Part shown: piece after piece, positions 4,533-54,189 of the stretch
How the letters are laid out: the number at the start of each line of letters is the position of its first letter
How positions within the stretch are numbered: the stretch's first letter is position 1
NCBI GenBank assembly: GCA_016188065.1
Contig: JACPIN010000005.1
Coordinates: forward strand, 13,646 to 77,645
DNA: 64,000 nucleotides
Source of the DNA: Candidatus Woesearchaeota archaeon
GTDB taxonomy: Archaea > Nanobdellota > Nanobdellia > SCGC-AAA011-G17 > ARS1403
Direction: 5' to 3'
Notes under the pieces: model-generated
The model's database searches: none
What the model was told of the DNA's origin: nothing
What the model saw: only the letters and a program-made list of their open reading frames with translations
Made by a program: the position numbers and the translations under genes

Positions 4533-5393
4533 TTATTTTAATAGTTTTAATAATATGGCCTTTTCTATATGCAATCTGTTTTCTGCCTGATCATAAACTA
4601 AACTCTGCTTTGAATCAATGACCTCATCTGTTACCTCCTCATTTCTTGAAGCTGGAAGGCAGTGCATAAATTTCGCTTTTCCTAATAATTTTTTGTTTAC
4701 TTGAAACGGCTTGAGAAGGTTTTTTCTTTTTGCATATTGGGACTTCGGAACATGATAAGAATACCATGTATCTGTATAGACTATATCTCCTTTTGCATCT
4801 TTCGAACTAAATGAAAGAGAATATCTTCCAGAAATTTTGGTCTTCAATTCTTTTGGACAAACAATGTTCAACTTAATTCCTACCTTAGGACATGCATAAA
4901 TCAAGGAAGTTGTTATATTATTATCCGCATCTCCAATGAAAGTCAATTTTATTCCGTCTAATTTTCCAAAGTGTTCTTTTATCGTTAACAAATCTCCTAA
5001 TATCTGACATGGGTGGGAGAAATTTGTAAGCGCATTAATAACTGGGATTAAAGAATACTTTGCTAACTCTTCTAACTGCTTATGTTCATATAGTCTTGCC
5101 ATAATTACATTTACATATCTTGAAGTCACTTTTGAAAAATCCTTGATGGATTCTTTCTCTCCTAGAACTGAATGAGATAGATCATAGAAAATGGCATGCC
5201 CTCCTAATTGGTACATTGCTATATCGAAAGATAGATGTGTTCTTAATGAAGGCTTTGCAAACAGCATCAGCAAAGTTTTTCCTAATAATTTTTTAGAGAA
5301 TTTTTTTGGTTTTCTTTTTATTTTTTCTGCTAATGAGATAAAATCCAGAATTTCCTCTTTTGAAAAATCTTTTATGGATAAGAGATGTTTCAT
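4533..5393 (-). CDS. arcB: Ornithine carbamoyltransferase (catabolic type likely)
   Basis: 286 aa; SLRTH (STRTR-like carbamoyl-phosphate site), HPCQ and HCLP motifs of the OTCase family; clustered with carbamate kinase. Confidence 0.75.
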   Translation of the reverse strand: MKHLLSIKDFSKEEILDFISLAEKIKRKPKKFSKKLLGKTLLMLFAKPSLRTHLSFDIAMYQLGGHAIFYDLSHSVLGEKESIKDFSKVTSRYVNVIMARLYEHKQLEELAKYSLIPVINALTNFSHPCQILGDLLTIKEHFGKLDGIKLTFIGDADNNITTSLIYACPKVGIKLNIVCPKELKTKISGRYSLSFSSKDAKGDIVYTDTWYSYHVPKSQYAKRKNLLKPFQVNKKLLGKAKFMHCLPASRNEEVTDEVIDSKQSLVYDQAENRLHIEKAILLKLLK

Positions 5394-12884: not shown

Positions 12885-13885
12885 AGGATAATCTTTTAAA
12901 TTTAATTTTGTATGACGGAGATATGAACACTGTTAAGATTTCTGCTAATGATGTTGAAAGAATAGCTAGCAATCTTCCTATGAAGGAGATTGTGAATTTT
13001 TTGGAAGATATACTTAGGGCAAGCCATGACGGGAAAATTAAAGTTACCGACAAAAAAGTTGTCCCCCCAGAGAGCAATGAGCCATATCATTTTCATCTTG
13101 AGCTAGAAACAGAGGATGAAAGAGAAGTTAAGGTCAGAAAAGTGATTGACGAAAGCAGGCCCGATGGTGTCAATGTTAAGAAAAATACTTTAATAACTCT
13201 GATAAATTCCGATAGGATATATGAAATTTTTGGTGACTTTATAACTGATACACGGACTGGAGCTTCCGGTGCCCTGGCTGCAAAGTATTTGACGGAAAAT
13301 CCGAGTGTTATCGCAATTGTTGGAGCTGGTAAAGTTCCAAGACAGTTTGCTTTAATTGCTGATTATCTTTTTAACCCTAGGGAGATTAGGTTTGCTACGA
13401 GAAGTGAAAAATCTAGAATTGAATTTTACGAATTTCTTAAAAATAATACTGATGCAGAGATTCAAGCATATGATATATTTAACTTCGATCATAGGAAGAG
13501 GCTGTTGAAAGATGCAGACATATTGTTTGAAGCAGCTCCTTTGTATAAAGATGGAGAAGACGTAAAATTTAAATTAAAAGAGATAATGTTGATGAGATCT
13601 GGCGCTCATATTTCTTCTATGACCGGTGATGGAAACCAGCATAATTTCCATGAGGATGTTTTGTTAAAAAGTGTTATTGTCGTTGATGATGAAAACTCTG
13701 CAAGGAAAAATTCTGAATTAAGGCACCTTGCTGAGAATGAAGGTAATGTTATTGGAACATTATTCGATGCTGCAGCCGGCAAACTTGAGATATATAAACA
13801 TCAGCTAACATTTTATGATTCAAGCGGAAATGCTCCTATGGATAGACTAGTGGAATTAGTTGTTAAAGAATATAATAAAGATTAA
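12872..13885 (+). CDS. Ornithine cyclodeaminase/mu-crystallin family protein (ornithine cyclodeaminase or archaeal alanine dehydrogenase type)
   Basis: 337 aa; TDTRTGASGALAAKYL and IAIVGAGKVPRQFA Rossmann motif typical of OCD/mu-crystallin. Confidence 0.65.
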   Translation: MLRLKDNLLNLILYDGDMNTVKISANDVERIASNLPMKEIVNFLEDILRASHDGKIKVTDKKVVPPESNEPYHFHLELETEDEREVKVRKVIDESRPDGVNVKKNTLITLINSDRIYEIFGDFITDTRTGASGALAAKYLTENPSVIAIVGAGKVPRQFALIADYLFNPREIRFATRSEKSRIEFYEFLKNNTDAEIQAYDIFNFDHRKRLLKDADILFEAAPLYKDGEDVKFKLKEIMLMRSGAHISSMTGDGNQHNFHEDVLLKSVIVVDDENSARKNSELRHLAENEGNVIGTLFDAAAGKLEIYKHQLTFYDSSGNAPMDRLVELVVKEYNKD

Positions 13886-16801: not shown

Positions 16802-18016
16802 TTATTTCTTTAATAATCTTTTTCTTTTTATTTTTGCTAGTAGTTTTGCTTTTGTTCTGTAATATCCCAAGTCTTCTATAACCCCTTGCCTATAACCATG
16901 GTCTAATTTTCTTATTTCTTTCTGTATCTTTTTTATCTCATTCCCAGACAGCTCTTTAAAGTTGAAACATCTTTTTAATTTAAAGACAATCTCTGCTAAT
17001 TTCAATCTTAGTTTTCCTTCTTTTATCTTTTTAATTGATTTTTTTTCGATTAATATTAATACAGCCAGGATAACTGCGATAATTAGCTTGAGGTATTTAT
17101 TTGAAAAGATATTAGATTCTGCTATTTCTATTTCCTTTTCAAATGATGTTGTTTTATCTTTATACTTAACAAGCATAACAACTTTATAACTTCCTGCTGG
17201 CAATTCACTTGTTTTAAAAGGCAATTTGAGAGTATTTGAAACAATAAACCTGCCTTCATTTTTTATGACTACCTCACTATTCCTGATTAATAAATTTGTA
17301 ATTGATACGGATTTTTCCTCGTCTGTGTTTGAAAATATATAAAAGTTAAGATCTGCTTTGCCAGACAAACTTTTTTCCTCCATGTAAATATTGAAAGAAA
17401 TCATTTCATCAACTTGTGTTCCTACTTTTAGAATTTCAATTGTCTGAGACGCTGTTGCTGAGTAGTCCAGGTAATGCACTTTAATATTTAACTTGTATAA
17501 TCCCTGTATCGATGATGGAATCCATAACCTAGAATTCAAAACCTTATCTTCATTTCTTGCTATAAAGATTGTTTCTTCTCCTGTTGAAAAGGCCTTTCCA
17601 GTCTTAAAATCTTCTAAAGAGTAACTTATGATTACATCATCGGAAATTTGGCTCATTTCTTTAATCAGATAAGAAAAATCAAGAAACTCTCCTGCGATCA
17701 TTGGAGAGTCTGCGTGGATTAATTTAATATCAAAAAGTCTTAAGCAATCTCCATCACGACAGATCAAACCAGGGGAGCAATCATTATTGGATAAACATCC
17801 TGAAAAGCTTTTTCCGCCACTACCTCCGCCGCCACTTGTAGCCGTAGTTGTTGTCGATGTTTGCACTGCTTCTTCTCCCACTCCATAACTTCCTTTTCCA
17901 TAATCCCCCTCTCCATAATTTGCTGCTTGCACTAATTGTAAAGAAATAAAAAATAACACAATTAAACAAAGAAAAATATTTCTTCTATAATTTTTTCTTT
18001 TATCAATATGCGGCAT
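16802..18016 (-). CDS. Secreted cell-surface protein with C-terminal TM anchor and basic cytoplasmic tail
   Basis: 404 aa; signal peptide, Gly/Thr/Cys-rich linker (TSTTTTATSGGGGSGG, CLSNNDCSPGLICRDGDC), beta-rich body, C-terminal TM (LKLIIAVILAVLILI) then KRKRLLKK. Confidence 0.45.
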   Translation of the reverse strand: MPHIDKRKNYRRNIFLCLIVLFFISLQLVQAANYGEGDYGKGSYGVGEEAVQTSTTTTATSGGGGSGGKSFSGCLSNNDCSPGLICRDGDCLRLFDIKLIHADSPMIAGEFLDFSYLIKEMSQISDDVIISYSLEDFKTGKAFSTGEETIFIARNEDKVLNSRLWIPSSIQGLYKLNIKVHYLDYSATASQTIEILKVGTQVDEMISFNIYMEEKSLSGKADLNFYIFSNTDEEKSVSITNLLIRNSEVVIKNEGRFIVSNTLKLPFKTSELPAGSYKVVMLVKYKDKTTSFEKEIEIAESNIFSNKYLKLIIAVILAVLILIEKKSIKKIKEGKLRLKLAEIVFKLKRCFNFKELSGNEIKKIQKEIRKLDHGYRQGVIEDLGYYRTKAKLLAKIKRKRLLKK

Positions 18017-19760
18017 TTTCTAGAATTTCTATCCTGTTATTTAACTCTTCTATTTGTTTTTGCTGATCTTGGATAGCTTTTGTTAGTAACGCTGTCAGTC
18101 TCGAGTATTCTACATTTAAAGGCTCACCATTTTCATAAAGAACAAATAAACTAGAAACATTTGCCACTTCCTCTGCAATAAATCCGGCTTGTCTCGGAGC
18201 ATTAGGCAGGTAACTTTCTTTATAATCAAACTCAACAGGATGTAATTCCATTACTTTACCTATCCCTAACTCTAATGATGAGATATTTTCTTTCACTTTT
18301 AAAGTAGACAAAGTGCAATCGGTAGCAGAGCTGGATTCTATAATTGTGTTATTTGATGTGATACAAACAGCCGTCCCTGAATTTTCTGCATTTAATCCTT
18401 CAAATATAACCTGTTTAGAAATATTCATGCTTCCACCAATGTTTAAAGTGTTTGACGGAGAAGTTGTACCTATACCCACGTTTCCATTTTGATCAATTTT
18501 AACCCTGTCAGAGCCTGCTGTAACAAAGCTTATTGCTCCATTTTCATTGTTGACAAAATAAAAACCACCATCAGTAGATCCAAAATTTGTCAGCTGTCCA
18601 CCTATGTTTGAAACGAAACTGGAACTTTTAACTACGCTTCCGGCTGATGCTGTGGTAGAGATATTCCCATTTACTTCAAGCTTATCTCCCGGGGTTGATG
18701 TACCGATGCCGACATTACCTCCTGATTTCATCAACAATAAATCGCTTAAACCGCTTGCTACATTTTTAACTTCAACAGCGGAATACCAGCTAGATCCATT
18801 ATAATAATAAAAACCAACACTTTCCCCTGCTGCTCCTCCCCCTTCTGATAATATTGAAAAGTTGCTTCCTGTAGGTATGATAAATACGCCTGCTGGAAGT
18901 TCTCCGGTTGCTGCCCCATTAGGTCTCACTGAAAGAACATAAGTGTCATTAATTGAGAGAGTTTCATCTGGACTATTTGTTCCGATTCCAACTTTGTCTG
19001 CACCTTTCAAAGTTAAAATGTCTATTGGAGTTCCATCGGTTTTTAGCCTGAAGAATATATCTCCGGCATCATTGTCCCATTTATTGTCAAAAAATGTATC
19101 TCCTCCATCGTTATCATAAAGTATTTGGAAACCTGCTCCATCTGCAGTATCTCTAAAATAGAGTCTGGGGTCTACTGTAGTGGAAGTCCCTGGATTAATT
19201 ACAACTGATGGATCTGTTTCACTTCCGACATTTAGAGTTCCATTTGTATTTGTAGTTCCCACAAGTACTTTTCCCCCCATCAACGCTATGTTGGATGTTG
19301 ATCCGGGATAAATAAAATCTGTTAAGAGAGAATCTGAAATGGATAAATTTCCTGCTACAAAGACATCATTGCTTACGGATAAATTATTAATTAGGATTGA
19401 AGGTAAGGTGTTAGCATAAAGATAATCTGAGATTAAAGAATCTACGATTGTTAAATTGGCCTGAGAGGTTATGTTATCTGTTACTGATAAATTTGCAAGA
19501 AGGAATTCGGAAGTTGCTAAAATATCATCTCCTGAGATTGTTGCATCTAAAATCTGAGTTGTATTGACAATACTTTGACGAAGGTTTCCTCCATCATCAA
19601 TGCTTACATTGAGATAATTGTTTAAAATTGTCCCCCATCCATCATCATCGCTGTTTACCGTTGGAAGCCTTTCTGCATCGACATTTGTTAGATGAATTGT
19701 AAATAGCAGCATCATAAAGAGGATTCTTCTTAACATTGTACAAGATTTATTGTACATCAA
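18003..19760 (-). CDS. Secreted tail-fibre-like protein with C-terminal peptidase-S74 intramolecular chaperone (auto-processing) domain
   Basis: 585 aa; signal peptide; repeated VGIGT(N/S/T)SP and SDSLLTDFIY beta-helix-like repeats; C-terminus HPVEFDYKES...RQAGFIAEEVANVSSLFV...coiled coil (QDQQKQIEELNNRIEILEN) matches the S74 self-cleaving chaperone domain of phage tail spikes and endosialidases. Confidence 0.6.
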   Translation of the reverse strand: MMYNKSCTMLRRILFMMLLFTIHLTNVDAERLPTVNSDDDGWGTILNNYLNVSIDDGGNLRQSIVNTTQILDATISGDDILATSEFLLANLSVTDNITSQANLTIVDSLISDYLYANTLPSILINNLSVSNDVFVAGNLSISDSLLTDFIYPGSTSNIALMGGKVLVGTTNTNGTLNVGSETDPSVVINPGTSTTVDPRLYFRDTADGAGFQILYDNDGGDTFFDNKWDNDAGDIFFRLKTDGTPIDILTLKGADKVGIGTNSPDETLSINDTYVLSVRPNGAATGELPAGVFIIPTGSNFSILSEGGGAAGESVGFYYYNGSSWYSAVEVKNVASGLSDLLLMKSGGNVGIGTSTPGDKLEVNGNISTTASAGSVVKSSSFVSNIGGQLTNFGSTDGGFYFVNNENGAISFVTAGSDRVKIDQNGNVGIGTTSPSNTLNIGGSMNISKQVIFEGLNAENSGTAVCITSNNTIIESSSATDCTLSTLKVKENISSLELGIGKVMELHPVEFDYKESYLPNAPRQAGFIAEEVANVSSLFVLYENGEPLNVEYSRLTALLTKAIQDQQKQIEELNNRIEILENAAY

Positions 19761-21014: not shown

Positions 21015-22139
21015 TTAATCTTGATTTATATATCTTTTTACGGTTTTTATAACATCCATATTAAACCGGGTTTGATATTTCGATAAAATTCTTTCCGAGA
21101 TTTCTTGAATTCCGATACCATTCTTTAACATAACTTTAATTTCTTCTCTAATTTTTTGTTTTGTTTCTTTATCTGTTTTCTGGAAAGTTTTAGATTTTAC
21201 AAAAGATTCCAGCAGTTTATATCTATAAGAGTTGACATATGGATTGAATATTGGGATTTCAAAAATGTCTTCTATTTTCTTAGTATTTCTAATCCAGACA
21301 ATATTCACCATTTTCCCCATCTTAGGAATCTTCCTTAATTTAATCCCTTTTGAGGTTCCAATTAACTCTATCAATATTTCTCTAATTAGTCCTGAATTAG
21401 GGTATGAAAATATCCTTAGATATCTACCTGGAAGATGTATTTTTGATCCGTCGCTATCACAAACACCTTGTATAAATCCGATCTTAAGCCATTTGGGTGA
21501 CTTCTTCATCCATTTTAGATTAACTTGATCATAAGTTGTAAGATCTTTTTCTTTTAATCCTAATATCTTTTCAAAAATGTAATCTGCCAAAAGAGAGTTT
21601 TTTGATCTCCAAAAGTACTCTAATCTATCCTTCTTTATTCGGTCTCTTCTACGAATCATTCTTATACCAAGAAGATTTGTTGTAAGTGAAAAGAAATCTC
21701 CGAATCTTTCATTACAGTCATGTTTTTTTGATAGTCCAAGACTTATTGTTCTAGACGATGTATGTAATTTGTCTTTACTACTATCTCCAATTAATACTCC
21801 AATAAAATAACCAAATAGATAGTCTTTATTCTTTTTTGAAAAATCATTAGGAAGATTAAATTTTTTCAGAAAGATACTAGTTTCTTTTGTTGGTTCTAAC
21901 TTACTAATAACTCTCTTAATATTTTTGAAATTGGTTATTTTCTTAGGTACTTGTATGAATCTTCCTATTGGAACTCCTCCACTTCCAAGTTTTAGGTTTA
22001 TCCATAAGAACCCTTTTTCAGGTTTTCCAATCTTTTTTAATGATTCGCCCCATTTTTTTGGGAGATTTCTGTTTCTATTGAAAAACCTTCTAGGTAGGTA
22101 AAAATATTTCATATCTCCATTAATATAGATATTTTTCAT
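21015..22139 (-). CDS. Free-standing double-motif LAGLIDADG-like homing endonuclease homolog with basic C-terminal extension
   Basis: 374 aa, very basic; two motifs about 120 aa apart, YLFGYFIGVLIGDSS (PI-SceI/I-DmoI type LLGLxIGDG) and WLKIGFIQGVCDSDGS; not embedded in an intein host or intron. Confidence 0.45.
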   Translation of the reverse strand: MKNIYINGDMKYFYLPRRFFNRNRNLPKKWGESLKKIGKPEKGFLWINLKLGSGGVPIGRFIQVPKKITNFKNIKRVISKLEPTKETSIFLKKFNLPNDFSKKNKDYLFGYFIGVLIGDSSKDKLHTSSRTISLGLSKKHDCNERFGDFFSLTTNLLGIRMIRRRDRIKKDRLEYFWRSKNSLLADYIFEKILGLKEKDLTTYDQVNLKWMKKSPKWLKIGFIQGVCDSDGSKIHLPGRYLRIFSYPNSGLIREILIELIGTSKGIKLRKIPKMGKMVNIVWIRNTKKIEDIFEIPIFNPYVNSYRYKLLESFVKSKTFQKTDKETKQKIREEIKVMLKNGIGIQEISERILSKYQTRFNMDVIKTVKRYINQD

Positions 22140-22738: not shown

Positions 22739-23315
22739 AATTTTCTATAACTTCTTTATTAAAAACTTCAGGATGAAACAACACCCCGTAATGGTTATTT
22801 ATTTTAATTGCCTGTATTGATTTTGAAGACTCAGCTAATAGGTCAAATCCTCCCGGCAAAGTAACTGAAAATTGATGCAGTGAATAAACTTTTGTTATGT
22901 CTTTGATTAATTTATTTTCTTTTAAAATTTTAATTTCTGTTTGACCAATTTCTTTTGCCTTTTTTAATCTTGATCCATTTGCCAAAGCTAAGATCTGCAT
23001 GCCTGCACATATTCCTAAAATTGGTTTTTTGTAATCTTTAATCCAAGAAAATTTTTCTAAATCTTTTAGATATTCATCATCTTTTAGAGATGTTCCTGCA
23101 ATTATTATTTTTTCAGCTGAATCTAAGTCTTTTTGCTTTAAATCTTTATAATGAATTACTTTAGATTTTTTTAATAAATCCGTGATTGGTTTTATAAATT
23201 CTAAATCATGCAGCCTGTCTTTGCTAACATTAATTATTAGAATCATCTTTGAATAGCGGGCAGTAAACAATTTCTGTTTCTGCTTCACCTCCCTCGAATG
23301 CCGGATTAAATCCAT
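22722..23315 (-). CDS. Class I glutamine amidotransferase (GMP synthase subunit A-like)
   Basis: 197 aa; GICAGMQIL catalytic Cys motif and C-terminal LFHPE; the true start is probably an internal Met that shortens the overlap. Confidence 0.65.
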   Translation of the reverse strand: MDLIRHSREVKQKQKLFTARYSKMILIINVSKDRLHDLEFIKPITDLLKKSKVIHYKDLKQKDLDSAEKIIIAGTSLKDDEYLKDLEKFSWIKDYKKPILGICAGMQILALANGSRLKKAKEIGQTEIKILKENKLIKDITKVYSLHQFSVTLPGGFDLLAESSKSIQAIKINNHYGVLFHPEVFNKEVIENFAKHI

Positions 23316-23838
23316 ATTTTTTGCTTAGTTCAATTAATTTTGGAAGAGACTCTTTATCTATAACCCTTCCAATCCAAGAATCATCTAATCCGTCTGTCGC
23401 TACTTTTATTATTTTAAACCTAAAATGATTTGCCACAAGCTCATTTAACAATTCAATTTGATTTTTCTGCCAGAGAGGATTGAAACAATAGAGATCTAAT
23501 TCGTTGCAGATTTTTTGTATTCTTGACGCTTGGTATGTTGAAGCTACTGCCCCTGTAACAATCCCCTCAACCTGATATTTTTCTATTGCTGCTTTGATTG
23601 CTCTTTTTAAATCTGCTAATTCTTTTTCTTTCTCTCCAGCTGTTGAAAACTTTATCAATGGTAAATTCATTTTTTTAGCTATTTCATCAACTTTATCTAT
23701 AGGCGTGTGGAACATATAACTGTCTTTATTTTTTGAATCCATGGTTATTAAGCAGACTATTTGATGATCGAATTTTTTGGCTAGATAAAGTGCATATGTA
23801 GAATCCTTCCCTCCTGAGAATAAGGATGCTAGTCTCAT
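23230..23838 (-). CDS. PP-loop ATP pyrophosphatase of the MJ0570/Dph6 (diphthine-ammonia ligase-like) family
   Basis: 202 aa; N-terminal ASLFSGGKDS PP-loop. Confidence 0.55.
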   Translation of the reverse strand: MRLASLFSGGKDSTYALYLAKKFDHQIVCLITMDSKNKDSYMFHTPIDKVDEIAKKMNLPLIKFSTAGEKEKELADLKRAIKAAIEKYQVEGIVTGAVASTYQASRIQKICNELDLYCFNPLWQKNQIELLNELVANHFRFKIIKVATDGLDDSWIGRVIDKESLPKLIELSKKYGFNPAFEGGEAETEIVYCPLFKDDSNN

Positions 23839-32022: not shown

Positions 32023-34605
32023 TTATTGTTTCTTGCTGTTTAATTTACTGAATGCATATTCTACCTGCTGCCTGCTCCACCCTCTTTCCAGCAAAGAATC
32101 AGCAATCTTCTCCTCATCGTATCCTTTATCCAGTGCTGATTTTATGTATGACCTGACTTTTGCCAACTCTACTCCTGACTTGAACGGAGATTTCTTGAAT
32201 CTTGAAGAAAGTAAATTTATCACTTCGTATAATTTTAGCTTCTGATAGAGCTTAAATTTATAAAATGCAAATCCGAGCCCTAAAATTAAAATTACTGTGA
32301 CTATAAATGGAATCCATGGAAATCCAGATACAACTACTTTTTCTTCTCTGCAATCCTCTGGGCAGGAGATAATGTCCTCTGCTGGATTGCAAACTCCATC
32401 GCCGCAGTTGAAGGGGATTAAGCTTGGAGAAAGCTCTTTTGGAATTACAACCAATACAGCATCTTTAACACTATTAATATTGTTGGAATGCAGCTTGTAG
32501 GAAAATGAAAATGAGTCTTTTAAAACTGGTATTGTGAACTTTGCACTTTGATAATCCTGCAGCCTTGTTATTTCTGGAAATGAATCTGTGAACTCAATTT
32601 TGTCTTGCGAAGATGCCAGCGAAGTTGGAATTAACTCAATTATGATTGCTTCCCTTATTTCCAGCGGAGTTGTTATAGTTTTCTTTACTAAAATAAAGCT
32701 TTCCTGCTTATTTGGATATGATAATGAAACTGCTGTTGCCGCCACTTCTTTCTGAAGCCTTGAATTTAATTCCTGCAATGTAGCCTTGTAGCTTTCTGTC
32801 TCAAGACCATATAACTTGTTAGTTTCTTCAACTGAAAGATAGGGTGTTATCGTTATTTTATTTACAGCTGTTATTGACGTCGGTATTGAATTTATGAGGT
32901 CATTAACTTCCTCTTCTGTCAATGTTGTTGACGATGACAGCGTTGAAATAGAACTATCTATTTTTTTACCTAAAGCAAGGCTTTCAAAAATCTCTTTTGT
33001 TGCCGGCATGGATAATTTATCTTTAATTGACTGCAGCCTTGAGATTGCTTCCTGAACTAACTCTGTTTTTGCCTTCTCTGAAAATATTTCTACCTGCAGC
33101 GTTTTTTCATCTGATATTCCATTTTCGTCTGTGACTATTAATTTAACTAAATAAACTTTTGGAAGTAGATATGAATGCGTTGTTGTCTTTGCATTAGCTG
33201 TAGTGTTGTCGCCAAAATCCCAGCTGTATGCCAGTTTGGAATCTGATTTTGAGCTTGATGCGTCGAATGTTATTGGCGTCAGCGTTGGTGCAAATTGCTG
33301 TGATATGTTAAAACCTGCTGCTGGCGCTGAGACTACTTGTATGTTTGCAGTTGCTGCTTCAGCCCCATACTCGACTTTTAATGTATAATTTCCAAGGTTT
33401 TTAGGAGCAAAAAGATCAAATTTTGAAACGGGAATTACTGCTTTTGATGATAGTTTATAATATGGCTTTTCTCCTTGTGAGTTCACTCCCAGCAAAAACT
33501 TATTTCTATTATAGGATTGCCCATCTTCAAGAGTTTCTGTGTAAGACAAATCATGGATCTTTACATTGTTTCCATTTTTAGCTGTCACATTAATTGGGAT
33601 TATACAGAAATCATCTTGATATGTACATGCCTGCAGGAAATTTGCGATTGCGTCTTTGAAATATTTTTCTTGAATTGTGTTTGATTCGAAATATTCCAGA
33701 GATTCTTGCAGCGTTGTTATGAAATTTGAAGATTTTGCCTTTATTGCATAATCTGTGTTTTGTATTTTGCTGCATGACGAAGCTGTGCATCTATATCCTT
33801 GTGAGTTAGATACAGAGTCATTTACAGCTAAAACAATTCCTGCTGAAGGCGCTGTCAGGCATATTTTATAATCTCCTTCATTAATTGGAGCAGAAGTTGA
33901 AATCGTACATTCTATTTCGGTAAATGTTTGCTGCAAAGAACTGCATGATTGCAGATTTGTTTCTATTCCTTGTATATATATTCCTAAACTTGGTGGGGCG
34001 GTTATTGATTTTTTTATTGCTGAGCTAATTCTGAATGTGTCTGATTTGTTCAAAAATATTTGCTGGCAGGTTCCTGTAGAATCCAAATTCAATTCTGTTG
34101 CATCGGCTGCATTAATTTCTGCTCCTTTATATTGATTCACATTCCAATCGATAACTGCCGGTGATTTTCCCTGGAATTCCCAGTCTATTATCCCATCATT
34201 GCCTACATCCACTCTTGGAGTGTCTGGATAATTTGCATCCGAATTTGATATATTGAATTTTGCATCAATGCCAATTGTCGAACCTTTTTTTATCCTGATT
34301 CCCGTTAGAAAGTTTGACGAGTTTATTTCTGTTGCTGTTGCTCCTGTGTAAACAAAATACTCTGAAGACTTTTCCTCGCATCCAGATGTGCAATTTATTA
34401 CTTGCTGTATCTGCTTTTCTTTTGAAACTGAATTTATTGAAACCTTTATTGTAGAATCTTTGCTGTAAGCCCCTTCCTGCAAGATAAGATTTCCCGATAA
34501 TTGCTTTTCCTTTCCTGCTTTTGACTCGTTGAAATCAAATGAAACAGCCATAGCCGTGCTTGCAAAAGCTATTAAGACAATCAAAAAGACTAGTTTCTTT
34601 AGCAT
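32023..34605 (-). CDS. Large secreted cell-surface protein with PKD domain and C-terminal TM anchor
   Basis: 860 aa; signal peptide; PKD-like segment (PITFDASSSKSDSKLAYSWDFGDNTTANAKTTTHSYLLPKVYLVKLIVTDENG); C-terminal TM (IPFIVTVILILGLGFAFY) plus cytoplasmic tail. Confidence 0.55.
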   Translation of the reverse strand: MLKKLVFLIVLIAFASTAMAVSFDFNESKAGKEKQLSGNLILQEGAYSKDSTIKVSINSVSKEKQIQQVINCTSGCEEKSSEYFVYTGATATEINSSNFLTGIRIKKGSTIGIDAKFNISNSDANYPDTPRVDVGNDGIIDWEFQGKSPAVIDWNVNQYKGAEINAADATELNLDSTGTCQQIFLNKSDTFRISSAIKKSITAPPSLGIYIQGIETNLQSCSSLQQTFTEIECTISTSAPINEGDYKICLTAPSAGIVLAVNDSVSNSQGYRCTASSCSKIQNTDYAIKAKSSNFITTLQESLEYFESNTIQEKYFKDAIANFLQACTYQDDFCIIPINVTAKNGNNVKIHDLSYTETLEDGQSYNRNKFLLGVNSQGEKPYYKLSSKAVIPVSKFDLFAPKNLGNYTLKVEYGAEAATANIQVVSAPAAGFNISQQFAPTLTPITFDASSSKSDSKLAYSWDFGDNTTANAKTTTHSYLLPKVYLVKLIVTDENGISDEKTLQVEIFSEKAKTELVQEAISRLQSIKDKLSMPATKEIFESLALGKKIDSSISTLSSSTTLTEEEVNDLINSIPTSITAVNKITITPYLSVEETNKLYGLETESYKATLQELNSRLQKEVAATAVSLSYPNKQESFILVKKTITTPLEIREAIIIELIPTSLASSQDKIEFTDSFPEITRLQDYQSAKFTIPVLKDSFSFSYKLHSNNINSVKDAVLVVIPKELSPSLIPFNCGDGVCNPAEDIISCPEDCREEKVVVSGFPWIPFIVTVILILGLGFAFYKFKLYQKLKLYEVINLLSSRFKKSPFKSGVELAKVRSYIKSALDKGYDEEKIADSLLERGWSRQQVEYAFSKLNSKKQ

Positions 34606-51489: not shown

Positions 51490-54189
51490 ATGGAAGAGAG
51501 TTCTGCTAAAGAGGCCTTGAAAAACGATTTCGGAGATAAGGCTTTAGAGGAAAGAAAACAGAAGATTTTTGCTTATTTTAAGAAAGACAAGAAATGGATA
51601 ATCTGGCTGGCTTTTGCTTTTATTGCCTGGTTTGGGTTTTGGATAAGGACCAGGAATATTCCTCTGTTGAAAGATGTTACTACGGGCGATTTTATCCAGG
51701 CAGATCCTGATGCTACTGCTTTCCTGAGATATGCAAAATACATTGTTGAGAATGGAAGATTGATGGATATTGACTTGATGAGGTATTACCCTTGGGGATA
51801 CGGAAACATGGTTGAATTTAAATTACTGAGTTATGCAATTGCTTACTTCTACAAATTCTTGCATTTCTTTAACTCCGATGTTACTGTTGGGTATGCGCAT
51901 GTTCTTTATCCACCTGTAGCTTTTGTAATTGGATTGATATTTTTCTTTTTGCTTGTTAGAAAACTATTTGATTATAGAATTGCTTTGCTTTCTAGTTTAT
52001 TATTGACAATAATTCCCCCGTATCTTTTTAGGACGATAGCCGGCGTGGGGGACAAAGAAGCATTTGGCATGATATTCTTTTTTGCTGCTTTATATTTTTT
52101 TGTTTGCGGCTGGAAGTCAGAAACTCTAAAGAAAAACTTAATTTTTGGAGCACTAGCTGGATTATCGACAGGCGTTATGGGACTTATTTGGGGCGGATTT
52201 GCCTTCGTAGTTACGATAATTGCCATTTTTTGCTTGATAGCTTTTACCTTTCTTGAATTTAACAGGCAAAGATTTTTTTCTTATGCTGTGTGGTATTTTA
52301 TTTTTTATCTAATCATGATTATTTTCAGAGGTTATAGATTAAATACCATAATCGGCGGCTATTATCATGCATTAGCCTTATTTACTTTATTAATTGGGGT
52401 AATTATTTATCTATCTTTAAAATATAACCTCAAAAACCTTATTGAAAAAAAATCCAAATTGCCTTACACAATTTCTATATCCATTTCTGTTATAATTATT
52501 GGGACCATTATTTCGCTGATTGTCATAGGAGGAGAGTTTGTATTTGGGCATATCGAGCAGGTATATGATACCTTAACAAGCCCATTTGGAAACGACCGAT
52601 GGCAATTAACTGTTGCTGAGGCGCATCAGCCATACTTGATTGAATTCATTAACTTTGTGAGCTGGAAATTTTTCTGGATTTATTTCATTGGCTCTATACT
52701 GATGGTTTATTTCTTGTTAAACAAAATAGATAAAAAGACAAGGAGTTGTGGTTTAATTATCTATACTTTATTCATTGTTGGATTTAGCTTTAGCAGATTT
52801 TCTCAGAATTCGAAAATTCTAAACGGAGAAAGCTTCTTTTCACTCAACATTATGTATCTAGGGGGTATTTCTATTGTGATGGTTTCATTCTTAGCCTACT
52901 ATCTTTATACTTACTATAAAAATAAAGAAGTTTTTGAAAAATTAAAGACCTTAGATGATAAATATTTATTTGTATTGATATGGCTGGTTGTCTTGCTTGT
53001 CGGCTCTAGAAGTGCAATAAGATTATTATTTATTTTCTCTACAATCGCATCTTTATTAGCAGCTTACTTTTGCATTAAGCTCTTTGATATTTCGCTTAAA
53101 TTTAAAAAAGATATTTACAAAATTTCAATTTGGATATTTCTAATTCTTGTTTTAGTAAATCCTTTTGCAATTGCCGGAAGTTTTGCTTATGGATTATTTA
53201 ATAAAGGCATCATTCTCGAGCATTCCCAGATAACCTATAATCAGGCAAGATATACTGGAACTGGATATGGCCAGCAATGGCAGATAGCTGGAAAATGGGT
53301 CAGAGAAAATGTGCCTGAAGATGCAATTTTTGCCCACTGGTGGGATTATGGTTATTGGGTGCAAACAAATTTTAATAGAGTAACAGTTACAGATGGGGGG
53401 AATGCTAAAGCTAGTTTAAACCACTATATGGGGAGATATGGGTTAACAGGACAAAATGAATTAGAAGCATTGGAATTTTTCAAAGCCCATAATGTTACCA
53501 ATTTCTTAGCTGTTTCTGATGAAATTGGAAAGTATCCTGCTTTTTCATCAATTGGAAGCGATGAGAATTGGGACAGATATTCCTGGCTGCCCCCCTTCCA
53601 AATGGATACAAGCAAGACTCAAGAAACAAGAGAGTATACTGTTTATGTTTACGGAGGGGTAAGCCCTCTTGATTATGATTTCAGATTCAATGGAGCATTA
53701 TACCCTAAAGGCGGCTCTGCCATAATCGGTTTCTTTATTCCTACAAAAGAAGAGAATGGAACCTTGAAGATAGAAACACCAGCTGCTGCCGTAATAAATC
53801 AAGGACAGCAAAGACAGATTCCACTTGAATGTATTTTTTTCAATGGACAGGAGATTTATTTCAATCAAAAAGGCTTGAAGGGGTGTTTCCATATCTTCCC
53901 TAGTGTTGATGGGCAAAAAGTTAATAATATTGGAGCAGGGATATATGTTTCTGAAAAAGTTAAGAAAACAATATTTGCCCAGCTTTATTTGTTTGGCAAG
54001 CCAGGAAAATATTTTAAATTGGCTTATAGCGATGAAAACCAGATACCCTTGGCACTTTATAACGGAAGATTAATAGGGCCGTTGAAAATCTGGGGGGTTA
54101 CATATCCTGAAAACCTAGGGGTTCCGGAGCATTACTATGAAGATGTGTTGATAAATCCAAATGTAACAAGCTTGGAAGGAAGGTATTAA
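51490..54189 (+). CDS. aglB: Oligosaccharyltransferase AglB (STT3 homolog)
   Basis: 899 aa; 13 TM N-terminal domain; WWDYGYW motif (HWWDYGYWVQ) and downstream DGG/DK-type motif region (TVTDGGNAKAS). Confidence 0.9.
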   Translation: MEESSAKEALKNDFGDKALEERKQKIFAYFKKDKKWIIWLAFAFIAWFGFWIRTRNIPLLKDVTTGDFIQADPDATAFLRYAKYIVENGRLMDIDLMRYYPWGYGNMVEFKLLSYAIAYFYKFLHFFNSDVTVGYAHVLYPPVAFVIGLIFFFLLVRKLFDYRIALLSSLLLTIIPPYLFRTIAGVGDKEAFGMIFFFAALYFFVCGWKSETLKKNLIFGALAGLSTGVMGLIWGGFAFVVTIIAIFCLIAFTFLEFNRQRFFSYAVWYFIFYLIMIIFRGYRLNTIIGGYYHALALFTLLIGVIIYLSLKYNLKNLIEKKSKLPYTISISISVIIIGTIISLIVIGGEFVFGHIEQVYDTLTSPFGNDRWQLTVAEAHQPYLIEFINFVSWKFFWIYFIGSILMVYFLLNKIDKKTRSCGLIIYTLFIVGFSFSRFSQNSKILNGESFFSLNIMYLGGISIVMVSFLAYYLYTYYKNKEVFEKLKTLDDKYLFVLIWLVVLLVGSRSAIRLLFIFSTIASLLAAYFCIKLFDISLKFKKDIYKISIWIFLILVLVNPFAIAGSFAYGLFNKGIILEHSQITYNQARYTGTGYGQQWQIAGKWVRENVPEDAIFAHWWDYGYWVQTNFNRVTVTDGGNAKASLNHYMGRYGLTGQNELEALEFFKAHNVTNFLAVSDEIGKYPAFSSIGSDENWDRYSWLPPFQMDTSKTQETREYTVYVYGGVSPLDYDFRFNGALYPKGGSAIIGFFIPTKEENGTLKIETPAAAVINQGQQRQIPLECIFFNGQEIYFNQKGLKGCFHIFPSVDGQKVNNIGAGIYVSEKVKKTIFAQLYLFGKPGKYFKLAYSDENQIPLALYNGRLIGPLKIWGVTYPENLGVPEHYYEDVLINPNVTSLEGRY

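Follow-up and report, generated by a model that had tools for sequence, protein, structure and literature searches.

A virus-type tail fibre and an overlapping membrane protein as a probable surface-fibre cassette in a Woesearchaeota archaeon

Why would an archaeon encode a tail fibre of the phage type, and what would hold such a fibre on its cell? The question is raised by a 64,000-nucleotide (nt) stretch of a Candidatus Woesearchaeota genome (contig JACPIN010000005.1, forward-strand positions 13,646 to 77,645), referred to here as the window. An initial annotation had placed a secreted tail-fibre-like protein and an overlapping second gene at positions 16802-19760. Both open reading frames (ORFs) were confirmed there on the minus strand. 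The two genes probably form a cellular surface-fibre cassette of this DPANN archaeon, a domesticated virus-type fibre on a dedicated membrane stalk that probably serves in adhesion to cells or surfaces. The genes are:

18003..19760, minus strand: fibre gene, coding for a secreted tail-fibre-like protein with a C-terminal S74 domain (ORF list, NCBI name, Pfam, PHROGs)
16802..18016, minus strand: ORF2, 404 amino acids (aa), a type-I membrane protein and candidate anchor or stalk (ORF list, relatives, AlphaFold)

The fibre is 585 aa long from a TTG start and 584 aa long from an ATG one codon on (19757), the form of the NCBI copy. That identical 584-aa protein is titled 'tail fiber domain-containing protein [Candidatus Woesearchaeota archaeon]', and its precomputed Pfam tag agrees with S74. 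The 404-aa ORF2 is listed by NCBI as a 'hypothetical protein' of Candidatus Woesearchaeota archaeon. It starts at an ATG within the fibre gene, so that the last 14 nt of that gene (18003-18016) are common to both. The pair recurs with identical neighbours across several sequencing runs, and the runs SRR12113383-SRR12113430 hold the identical fibre gene.

Does the fibre end in the self-cleaving chaperone domain known from phage fibres?

18006..18308, minus strand: Peptidase_S74 chaperone/autoprotease domain, residues 485-585 (PF13884, solved-domain matches, AlphaFold)

Pfam family PF13884 matches residues 489-535 (E 2.4e-7) with 31.4 bits, above the gathering score of 22. The S74 catalytic motif is SDxxxK (PMC10769870). 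In the fibre the Ser-Lys dyad is present as S485-T-L-K-V-K490, with Ser and Lys at the SDxxxK spacing and the Asp replaced by Thr. Ser485 and Lys490 align to invariant residues in seven divergent members (27-41% identity) of a subclass marked by a Cys pair. Across this subclass the residue after the Ser, the non-catalytic Asp of SDxxxK, is S, L or T. A profile of the fibre and six relatives matches the solved S74 domains of the S16 fibre (6f45, 8e-10), MYRF ICA (7dc3, 2e-9), the phage tail fibre 8jov (2e-8) and T5 pb1 (8hqz, 5e-3), and the catalytic Ser of the subclass is aligned with the Ser of 6f45 and 8jov. A search of solved structures also matched 8jov to the fibre C-terminus. The C-terminal helix of the domain, residues 552-584, was modelled at a predicted local distance difference test (pLDDT) score above 90 in the AlphaFold monomer. 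Both the S74 domain and the dyad expected by the initial annotation were thus recovered.

Upstream of the S74 domain lie two further regions:

19011..19604, minus strand: N-terminal shaft, residues 53-250 (phmmer mapping; AlphaFold confidence low over 62-142)
18309..19010, minus strand: fibre body, residues 251-484, beta-rich modules with three VGIGTxSPxxxL loops between them and a Cys466...Cys482 tip at the end

Residues 122-285 have 74% identity to P0002 and residues 8-306 align with P0018 (phmmer). There are three canonical loops in the body, KVGIGTNSPDETL (256-268), NVGIGTSTPGDKL (349-361) and NVGIGTTSPSNTL (427-439), and a degenerate fourth, KVLVGTTNTNGTL, at residues 164-176. Of the two repeats first proposed, the VGIGT loops are real, but SDSLLTDFIY forms no true repeat family, occurring once (142-151) with one related copy, VDSLISDYLY (106-115). 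The loops (GNVGIGTxSPxxxL) align residue by residue to those of the Bdellovibrio fibre Bd2133 (8ond, E 1e-9) and of further crystal structures of its fibre family, and these are the best sequence matches among solved structures. Ten tail-fibre or tail families of PHROGs match the fibre at E<1e-7, the best at 4e-20. Together with the Pfam S74 match and the matches to solved S74 domains, these families uphold the description of the protein as tail-fibre-like. In the AlphaFold2 monomer the body consists of beta strands at pLDDT 55-76, and residues 62-142 score below 45.

A tail-fibre-like protein that is secreted could also be a tailspike-like polysaccharide depolymerase of the endosialidase type, degrading host or biofilm glycans. 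The first S74 domains to be described were those of endosialidases and tailspikes, and among the phage matches of the fibre one is annotated 'endo n acetylneuraminidase'. No glycosidase, lyase or pectate-lyase-type domain was detected, the body aligns to the non-enzymatic Bd2133 modules and to tail-fibre PHROGs, and just about 45 residues separate the last loop from the cleavage site. We rejected the depolymerase on these grounds and consider it very unlikely.

N-x-S/T sequons are abundant in the fibre (NVS, NTT, NLS and NIT in residues 50-130 are examples), which may therefore be N-glycosylated.

Does the fibre belong to the cell or to a virus particle? Its N-terminus bears on this directly.

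19674..19760, minus strand: signal peptide, residues 1-29, predicted cleavage after V-D-A (hydropathy and sequence)

The protein starts with MMYNKSCTMLRRILFMMLLFTIHLTNVDA followed by ERLP, giving a basic n-region with RR, a hydrophobic core and the V-D-A site. By the hydropathy heuristic the n, h and c regions of a Sec-type signal peptide are all present, as had been proposed. The signal peptides of five relatives align with that of the fibre and have Ala at -1 (alignment A5). Most of the 120 best fibre homologues have phage-style N-termini, no signal peptide and the canonical SDYRLKENI. A minority, which includes the fibre, combine two Cys at most 30 residues upstream of the cleavage Ser with a non-Asp residue after it and a signal-peptide-like N-terminus. 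Such an N-terminus is found in 6 of 8 Cys-pair S74 homologues vs 1 of 52 others (Fisher p = 4e-6). The Cys pair is invariant in the signal-peptide-bearing S74 subclass, and in the fibre Cys466 and Cys482 directly precede the cleavage site. Two Cys-pair relatives with signal peptides occupy ordinary cellular contexts.

The pair also has cellular neighbours. On one flank are genes for an M42 peptidase, glutaredoxin, a K+ channel, glutamate dehydrogenase and OCD, and on the opposite flank genes for an aminotransferase, GATase, diphthamide synthase, a methyltransferase and an MFS transporter; STT3/AglB and SecDF are encoded farther away in the window. The GC content is 0.367 for the fibre gene, 0.314 for ORF2 and 0.339 for the window, a host-like composition.

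The alternative is that the fibre is, or was, a particle component, left by an integrated archaeal virus, a tailocin or a contractile injection system. Every recognisable fibre module does have viral tail-fibre relatives, and the N-terminal motif described below is present on viral contigs. A Sec signal peptide, however, is incompatible with cytoplasmic virion assembly and is absent from 51 of the 52 phage-type homologues. No capsid, tail, baseplate, terminase or integrase gene was found within about 8 kb on either side of the pair, and the composition is host-like. Members of the ORF2 family were not found on viral contigs in a scan of IMG/VR. Just 10 records of a phage database match the fibre, all from bacterial phages at no more than 35% identity and none over residues 1-200. 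A contig scan with the fibre alone returned 8 loci, only bacterial and with no archaeon, and is little informative on archaeal distribution. The lack of a tail or baseplate cluster around the gene and the rarity of the signal peptide among phage-type homologues led us to reject a prophage or tailocin component. The virus-remnant reading is largely refuted and we regard it as extremely unlikely. A phage-derived fibre used by the cell, the reading preferred by the initial annotation, fits better than the prophage or tailocin remnant it had offered as an alternative, given the signal peptide, the cellular neighbours and the host-like composition.

What, then, is the origin of the mature N-terminus of this cellular fibre?

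19605..19673, minus strand: mature N-terminal motif, residues 30-52, ERLPTVNSDDDGWGTILNNYLNV (alignment of six fibres; viral-contig scan)

The motif ERLPTVNSDDDGWGTILN stands at the mature N-terminus of the fibre, and on viral contigs it opens tail proteins that have no signal peptide. Residues R31, P33, D38, W42, G43, L46 and N47 are invariant in six archaeal-type fibres. Five further proteins, found through ORF2 contexts, carry the motif directly after a signal peptide, for example ARLPTVGGDTDGWGTILNEFLN. Pfam and PHROGs gave no family for the N-terminal 227 residues of the fibre. In an IMG/VR scan for the motif, four viral contigs carried it, each time opening the protein (start residue 2-13) and with no signal peptide. 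One of these contigs, L068, comes from a tailed virus and carries genes for the major head and major tail proteins, the tape measure and the terminase; its motif protein begins MSRLPVIGGDADNWGTILNDFL and is encoded directly behind the tape-measure gene. Because the motif opens signal-peptide-less proteins on IMG/VR contigs, in L068 behind the tape-measure gene, we consider the fibre N-terminus to be of viral ancestry. It also resembles the extreme N-termini of fibre homologues without a signal peptide. The archaeal fibre thus has the complete polarity of its viral counterparts, from a virion-proximal N-terminus to a distal C-terminus capped by a chaperone, with an export signal in front.

Behind the shared motif the tips differ. 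They are S74 in the window, Lcl_C in L023 and L024, DUF7409 with a Cys tip in L016, and a weak Peptidase_G2 match in L056.

The L068 motif protein (4561-5016) is just 151 aa long, and in that virus the motif may mark a tail-tip adaptor instead of a long fibre. In L013 (3177-4205, P0275/P0018 cluster) we found the sole homologue among the top 120 that covers the first 160 or so residues of the fibre. Instead of a short cleavable signal peptide, this protein carries a long basic segment at the N-terminus and a transmembrane helix; its contig has no ORF2-like gene. This homologue may be anchored through its own N-terminus.

What could hold the fibre of the window on the cell? Since a viral fibre is held at the N-terminus and contacts its target with the C-terminus, it can have no C-terminal membrane anchor, which provides a rationale for a separate one. 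ORF2 has the following parts:

17873..17923, minus strand: mature N-terminal peptide, residues 32-48, ANYGEGDYGKGSYGVGE (YG motif; alignment A4)
17801-17872, minus strand: Thr/Gly linker, residues 49-72, following the YG peptide
17123..17800, minus strand: ectodomain, with a Cys knot (73-92) and beta-sandwiches (about 93-196 and 205-298) (AlphaFold, Foldseek)
16805..17101, minus strand: transmembrane helix (about 306-326) and basic helical cytoplasmic tail (327-404) (hydropathy, model)

The AlphaFold model of ORF2 (pLDDT 73.8) has a signal helix, a disordered Gly/Thr linker, the Cys knot, two beta-sandwiches, the transmembrane helix and the basic helical tail, with the ectodomain at pLDDT 82-95, its two beta-sandwiches at 85-95, and helices at 306-349 and 357-402. 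ORF2 had been described as a secreted protein with a C-terminal membrane anchor whose start overlaps the fibre gene. The overlap and the predicted export and membrane anchoring hold, but the transmembrane helix is not C-terminal, as a cytoplasmic stretch of about 78 residues, helical and mostly basic, comes after it. Foldseek matched ORF2 to generic tandem beta-sandwich proteins, with the Enterococcus WxLIP 9i25 on top (2.3e-9) and RbmA and transglutaminase C-terminal domains also found. The match to Pfam WxLIP_HBD (E 0.0012, 19.2 bits) is below the cut-off of 28.9, and no Pfam family covers the conserved core of ORF2.

An exhaustive HMMER search recovered at least 347 relatives of ORF2, 250 of them at E<1e-10. 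The conserved core, about residues 50-330, always lies directly before the transmembrane segment. About half of the relatives are giant secreted surface proteins of up to 5,484 aa, with the core at their C-terminal, membrane-proximal end. The three named members of the family are all archaeal (Candidatus Nanoarchaeia, Candidatus Woesearchaeota and 'archaeon'), and the neighbourhoods of the bacterial fibre homologues contained no ORF2-like gene.

A word-indexed search matched ORF2 to itself alone, and the orphan status that this suggested was ruled out by the 347 HMMER relatives. Orphan calls from word-indexed searches alone are unsafe for fast-evolving surface proteins rich in low complexity. 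The ORF2 module is locally amplified at L045 (1340-12226), where two short ORF2-like genes in tandem are followed by a 2,906-aa protein with the module at its C-terminal end.

How often is an ORF2-like gene encoded next to a fibre? We collected ORF2 contexts by locus look-ups and one metagenome scan (47 loci), which were analysed with local hidden Markov models. Stand-alone ORF2-like genes are found downstream of fibre-motif or S74 genes, on the same strand, in at least eight independent contigs. The upstream partners and their spacing are:

L014/L072 (NCBI GCA_028279765.1): 2,850-aa LVIVD protein with S74, gap 78 nt
L016-L018: 621-aa protein with signal peptide and N-terminal motif, no S74, overlapping genes
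L023: motif-bearing fibre, 871 aa, gap 191 nt
L024: motif-bearing fibre, 479 aa, gap 218 nt
L056: motif-bearing fibre, 792 aa, gap 196 nt
L048: S74-terminated protein, gap 228 nt
L019/L073: 2,180-aa FG-GAP/LVIVD/S74 protein, 1.8 kb with two SBP genes between
L035, L057: proteins matching the fibre homologue set, gap 1 nt (L035) and overlap (L057)

The conserved pairing on other contigs lends independent support, at the level of gene order, to the early guess that ORF2 may be the membrane stalk of the fibre. Other ORF2 contexts are of a different or unclear kind (L028, L038, L040, L060, L045 and L062).

The N-terminal peptide of the anchors follows the type of partner. All eight stand-alone anchors beside clear fibre or S74 genes carry (Y/H)(G/D)xGx(Y/F)xxGx(Y/F)GxGE after the signal peptide and then poly-Gly. 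A stricter YG pattern is present in 18 of 98 stand-alone vs 0 of 91 fused members of the family, and the motif occupies the position at which the fused relatives bear an ectodomain. Anchors beside other upstream proteins have different N-terminal peptides, so that the peptide changes with the kind of protein encoded upstream. From this co-variation we propose the YG peptide, free at the N-terminus and followed by a flexible linker, as a docking element for a partner in trans.

A second flavour of the cassette was seen at L035 (6237-10185) and L057 (1-2689). The upstream secreted proteins share the C-terminus VTVTGGTGTGGV…NLIAGGDRNSVRG, and their ORF2-like partners share the peptide SNENYSV…GLQ…GNYNG in place of the YG motif, which suggests partner-specific co-evolution.

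The giant archaeal-type surface proteins L072 (1370-9922, 2,850 aa) and L073 (1673-8215, 2,180 aa) are built of LVIVD, FG-GAP and LamG domains with an internal S74. A Cys pair stands before this S74 (C…CS followed by SDEELKEDI) and 340-420 further residues come after it. The arrangement is MYRF-like, and self-cleavage would split each protein into two large extracellular parts.

It is also conceivable that the fibre is cellular while ORF2 is not its anchor. ORF2 would then be an independent small surface or stalk protein, or a sensor with a cytoplasmic tail, in the same operon or island of surface proteins, and the fibre would be released free or held otherwise, for example by an S-layer. The ORF2 module does occur in many architectures and beside several kinds of upstream protein, ORF2-like genes included (L045, L062), and its ectodomain has the generic fold of tandem beta-sandwiches. 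No ORF2-like gene lies beside P0273, and the giant S74 partners have no N-terminal fibre motif. On the other side are the same-strand adjacency or overlap with fibre or S74 genes in at least eight independent contigs, though such genes are rare, the co-variation of the anchor peptide with the partner type, and the absence of the YG peptide from the 91 modules covalently fused to an ectodomain. We think it rather unlikely that ORF2 is not the anchor.

In the proposed cassette the fibre would be exported by Sec. Once outside, its S74 domain would drive trimerisation and would then cut itself off at Ser485 using Lys490, exposing the small Cys466/Cys482 tip, probably stabilised by a disulfide, as the distal end. 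The ORF2 stalk would hold the fibre on the cell in trans through its transmembrane helix, two beta-sandwiches, Cys knot, flexible Gly linker and YGxGxYGxGxYGxGE peptide. Displayed in this way, the fibre could bind a surface structure of another cell, presumably the host of a symbiont, or a substrate. We infer the trimerisation, the cleavage, the contact between fibre and ORF2, a docking role for the YG peptide and the target of adhesion from knowledge of the S74 family (PMC10769870) and from synteny. Host-cell adhesion and an episymbiotic lifestyle of the organism are likewise presumed.

The evidence is computational throughout, and several observations weigh against the fibre-and-stalk cassette. 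All signal peptides were called by a hydropathy heuristic and not by a trained predictor. The Asp to Thr change in the catalytic motif makes it uncertain that the fibre can cleave itself. The AlphaFold2 monomer of the fibre has a mean pLDDT of 61.7 and is confident (>90) for about residues 490-585 only. A Foldseek search of this model against the PDB found nothing at E<=1e-3; the top ranks above that value were Bd2133, Bd3182, T4 gp34 and the endosialidase chaperone 3GW6. A poor fold result for the body, for which a trimeric beta-helix had been proposed, is to be expected from a monomer model of a presumed obligate trimer. For ORF2, the ectodomain fold is generic, and the taxonomy of its contexts is inferred from the three named family members only. 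The contexts themselves come from only about 15 independent contigs. None of the 150 best relatives combines the ORF2 module with a fibre or S74 module in one protein, so a Rosetta-stone fusion is lacking. Nor is the pairing universal, as P0273, the closest relative of the fibre body, stands without an ORF2-like neighbour, and at L019/L073 two SBP genes separate the S74 protein from the ORF2-like gene. The N-terminal motif was looked for in the giant S74 partners L072 and L073 and is absent, so ORF2 cannot recognise that motif only.

To our knowledge, little is understood of how ultrasmall DPANN archaea find their hosts and hold on to them, and we know of no cultures of the Woesearchaeota/Pacearchaeota-type lineages. 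The gene pair, a fibre with swappable tips and a membrane stalk, provides concrete and expressible candidates for host recognition. We propose tentatively that DPANN archaea of the Woesearchaeota/Nanoarchaeia type may possess two-component host recognition. Virus-derived trimeric fibres with swappable tips would be docked non-covalently by their virion-proximal ends, through the YG peptide, on lineage-specific membrane stalks of the ORF2 family; the stalk would act as a cellular substitute for the baseplate and the tips would set host range. Metagenomes can be searched for a signal peptide followed by RLPTVGGDxDxWGTILN and for a YG-peptide anchor. No report of S74 domains or tail fibres from DPANN lineages came up in literature searches, which returned just one remark, on host 'antennae', that is unrelated. 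NCBI already annotates the fibre by itself; the conserved fibre and anchor cassette in DPANN-type archaea appears to be undescribed in the searchable literature.

Other features of the window were noted. The STT3/AglB oligosaccharyltransferase (51490-54189, plus strand) and diphthamide synthase (23230-23838, minus strand) confirm an archaeal cellular context. A 374-aa ORF at 21015-22139 (minus strand), between the aminotransferase and a small membrane protein, has no Pfam match and two LAGLIDADG-like motifs, LFGYFIGVLIGDSSK and IGFIQGVCDSDGSK. It may code for a free-standing homing-endonuclease-like protein or a derived DNA-binding protein. At 32023-34605 (minus strand) an 860-aa protein with a PKD domain (PF18911, 1.9e-15) and no ORF2 anchor module is a probable second surface protein of the window. 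Rfam and tRNA scans of the window gave no matches.

How does the cassette compare with known systems? The WxL complexes of Enterococcus and Lactobacillus (WxLIP, DUF916/DUF3324, 9I25) offer an analogy only. There, a single-pass, C-terminally anchored protein of tandem beta-sandwiches retains a secreted partner from the same operon, as ORF2 is proposed to do. They differ in that the Pfam match is below cut-off, the TM-scores are 0.2-0.3 and the fold is generic, the fibre has no WxL domain, and WxLIP is bacterial.

The ICA domain of MYRF (7DC3) is an S74-type domain that serves a cell for trimerisation and self-cleavage, and the giant L072 and L073 proteins recall its internal placement in MYRF. 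MYRF is a eukaryotic transcription factor of the ER membrane, whereas the S74 domain of the window protein is terminal and extracellular. Phage S74 fibres and tailspikes, such as the K1F endosialidase (3GW6), the T5 L-shaped fibre pb1 (4UW8/8HQZ) and the S16 long tail fibre (6F45), share with the fibre the S74 Ser and Lys, the C-terminal helix, homology to tail-fibre PHROGs and the N-terminal motif of viral tail proteins. Unlike them, the fibre of the window has a signal peptide and a replaced motif Asp, lies away from tail genes and is paired with a cellular membrane protein.

The closest likeness is to the mosaic adhesive trimer (MAT) fibres of Bdellovibrio bacteriovorus, which include an S74 subgroup with, for example, Bd3182 (Caulton et al. 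2024, PMC10769870). Like the fibre of the window, MAT fibres are cellular proteins with a signal peptide and not parts of virions. Both have identical GNVGIGTxxPxxxL capping loops, which align at residue level to those of Bd2133 (8ond), a C-terminal S74 chaperone/protease that is optional, and a constant N-terminal region with swappable tips, and both are carried by organisms that must, in the case of the archaeon presumably, recognise other cells. The host of the window fibre, in contrast, is an archaeon with no outer membrane, and its fibre has 585 aa vs about 1,000 aa in a typical MAT. The conserved N-domain of all MATs is beta-rich and about 130 aa long; the window fibre has a short motif that also occurs in other archaeal fibres and in viral tail proteins. 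In the window fibre a Cys pair precedes the catalytic motif, which reads STxxxK in place of SDxxxK. The idea of cells armed with phage-type fibres would thus be extended to archaea. A candidate membrane anchor is co-encoded in the archaeon, whereas the surface anchor of the MAT system 'awaits further study' (PMC10769870), and ORF2 is a candidate for this missing piece. If the contact between fibre and anchor is real, a viral attachment module would have been re-plugged into a cellular membrane protein.

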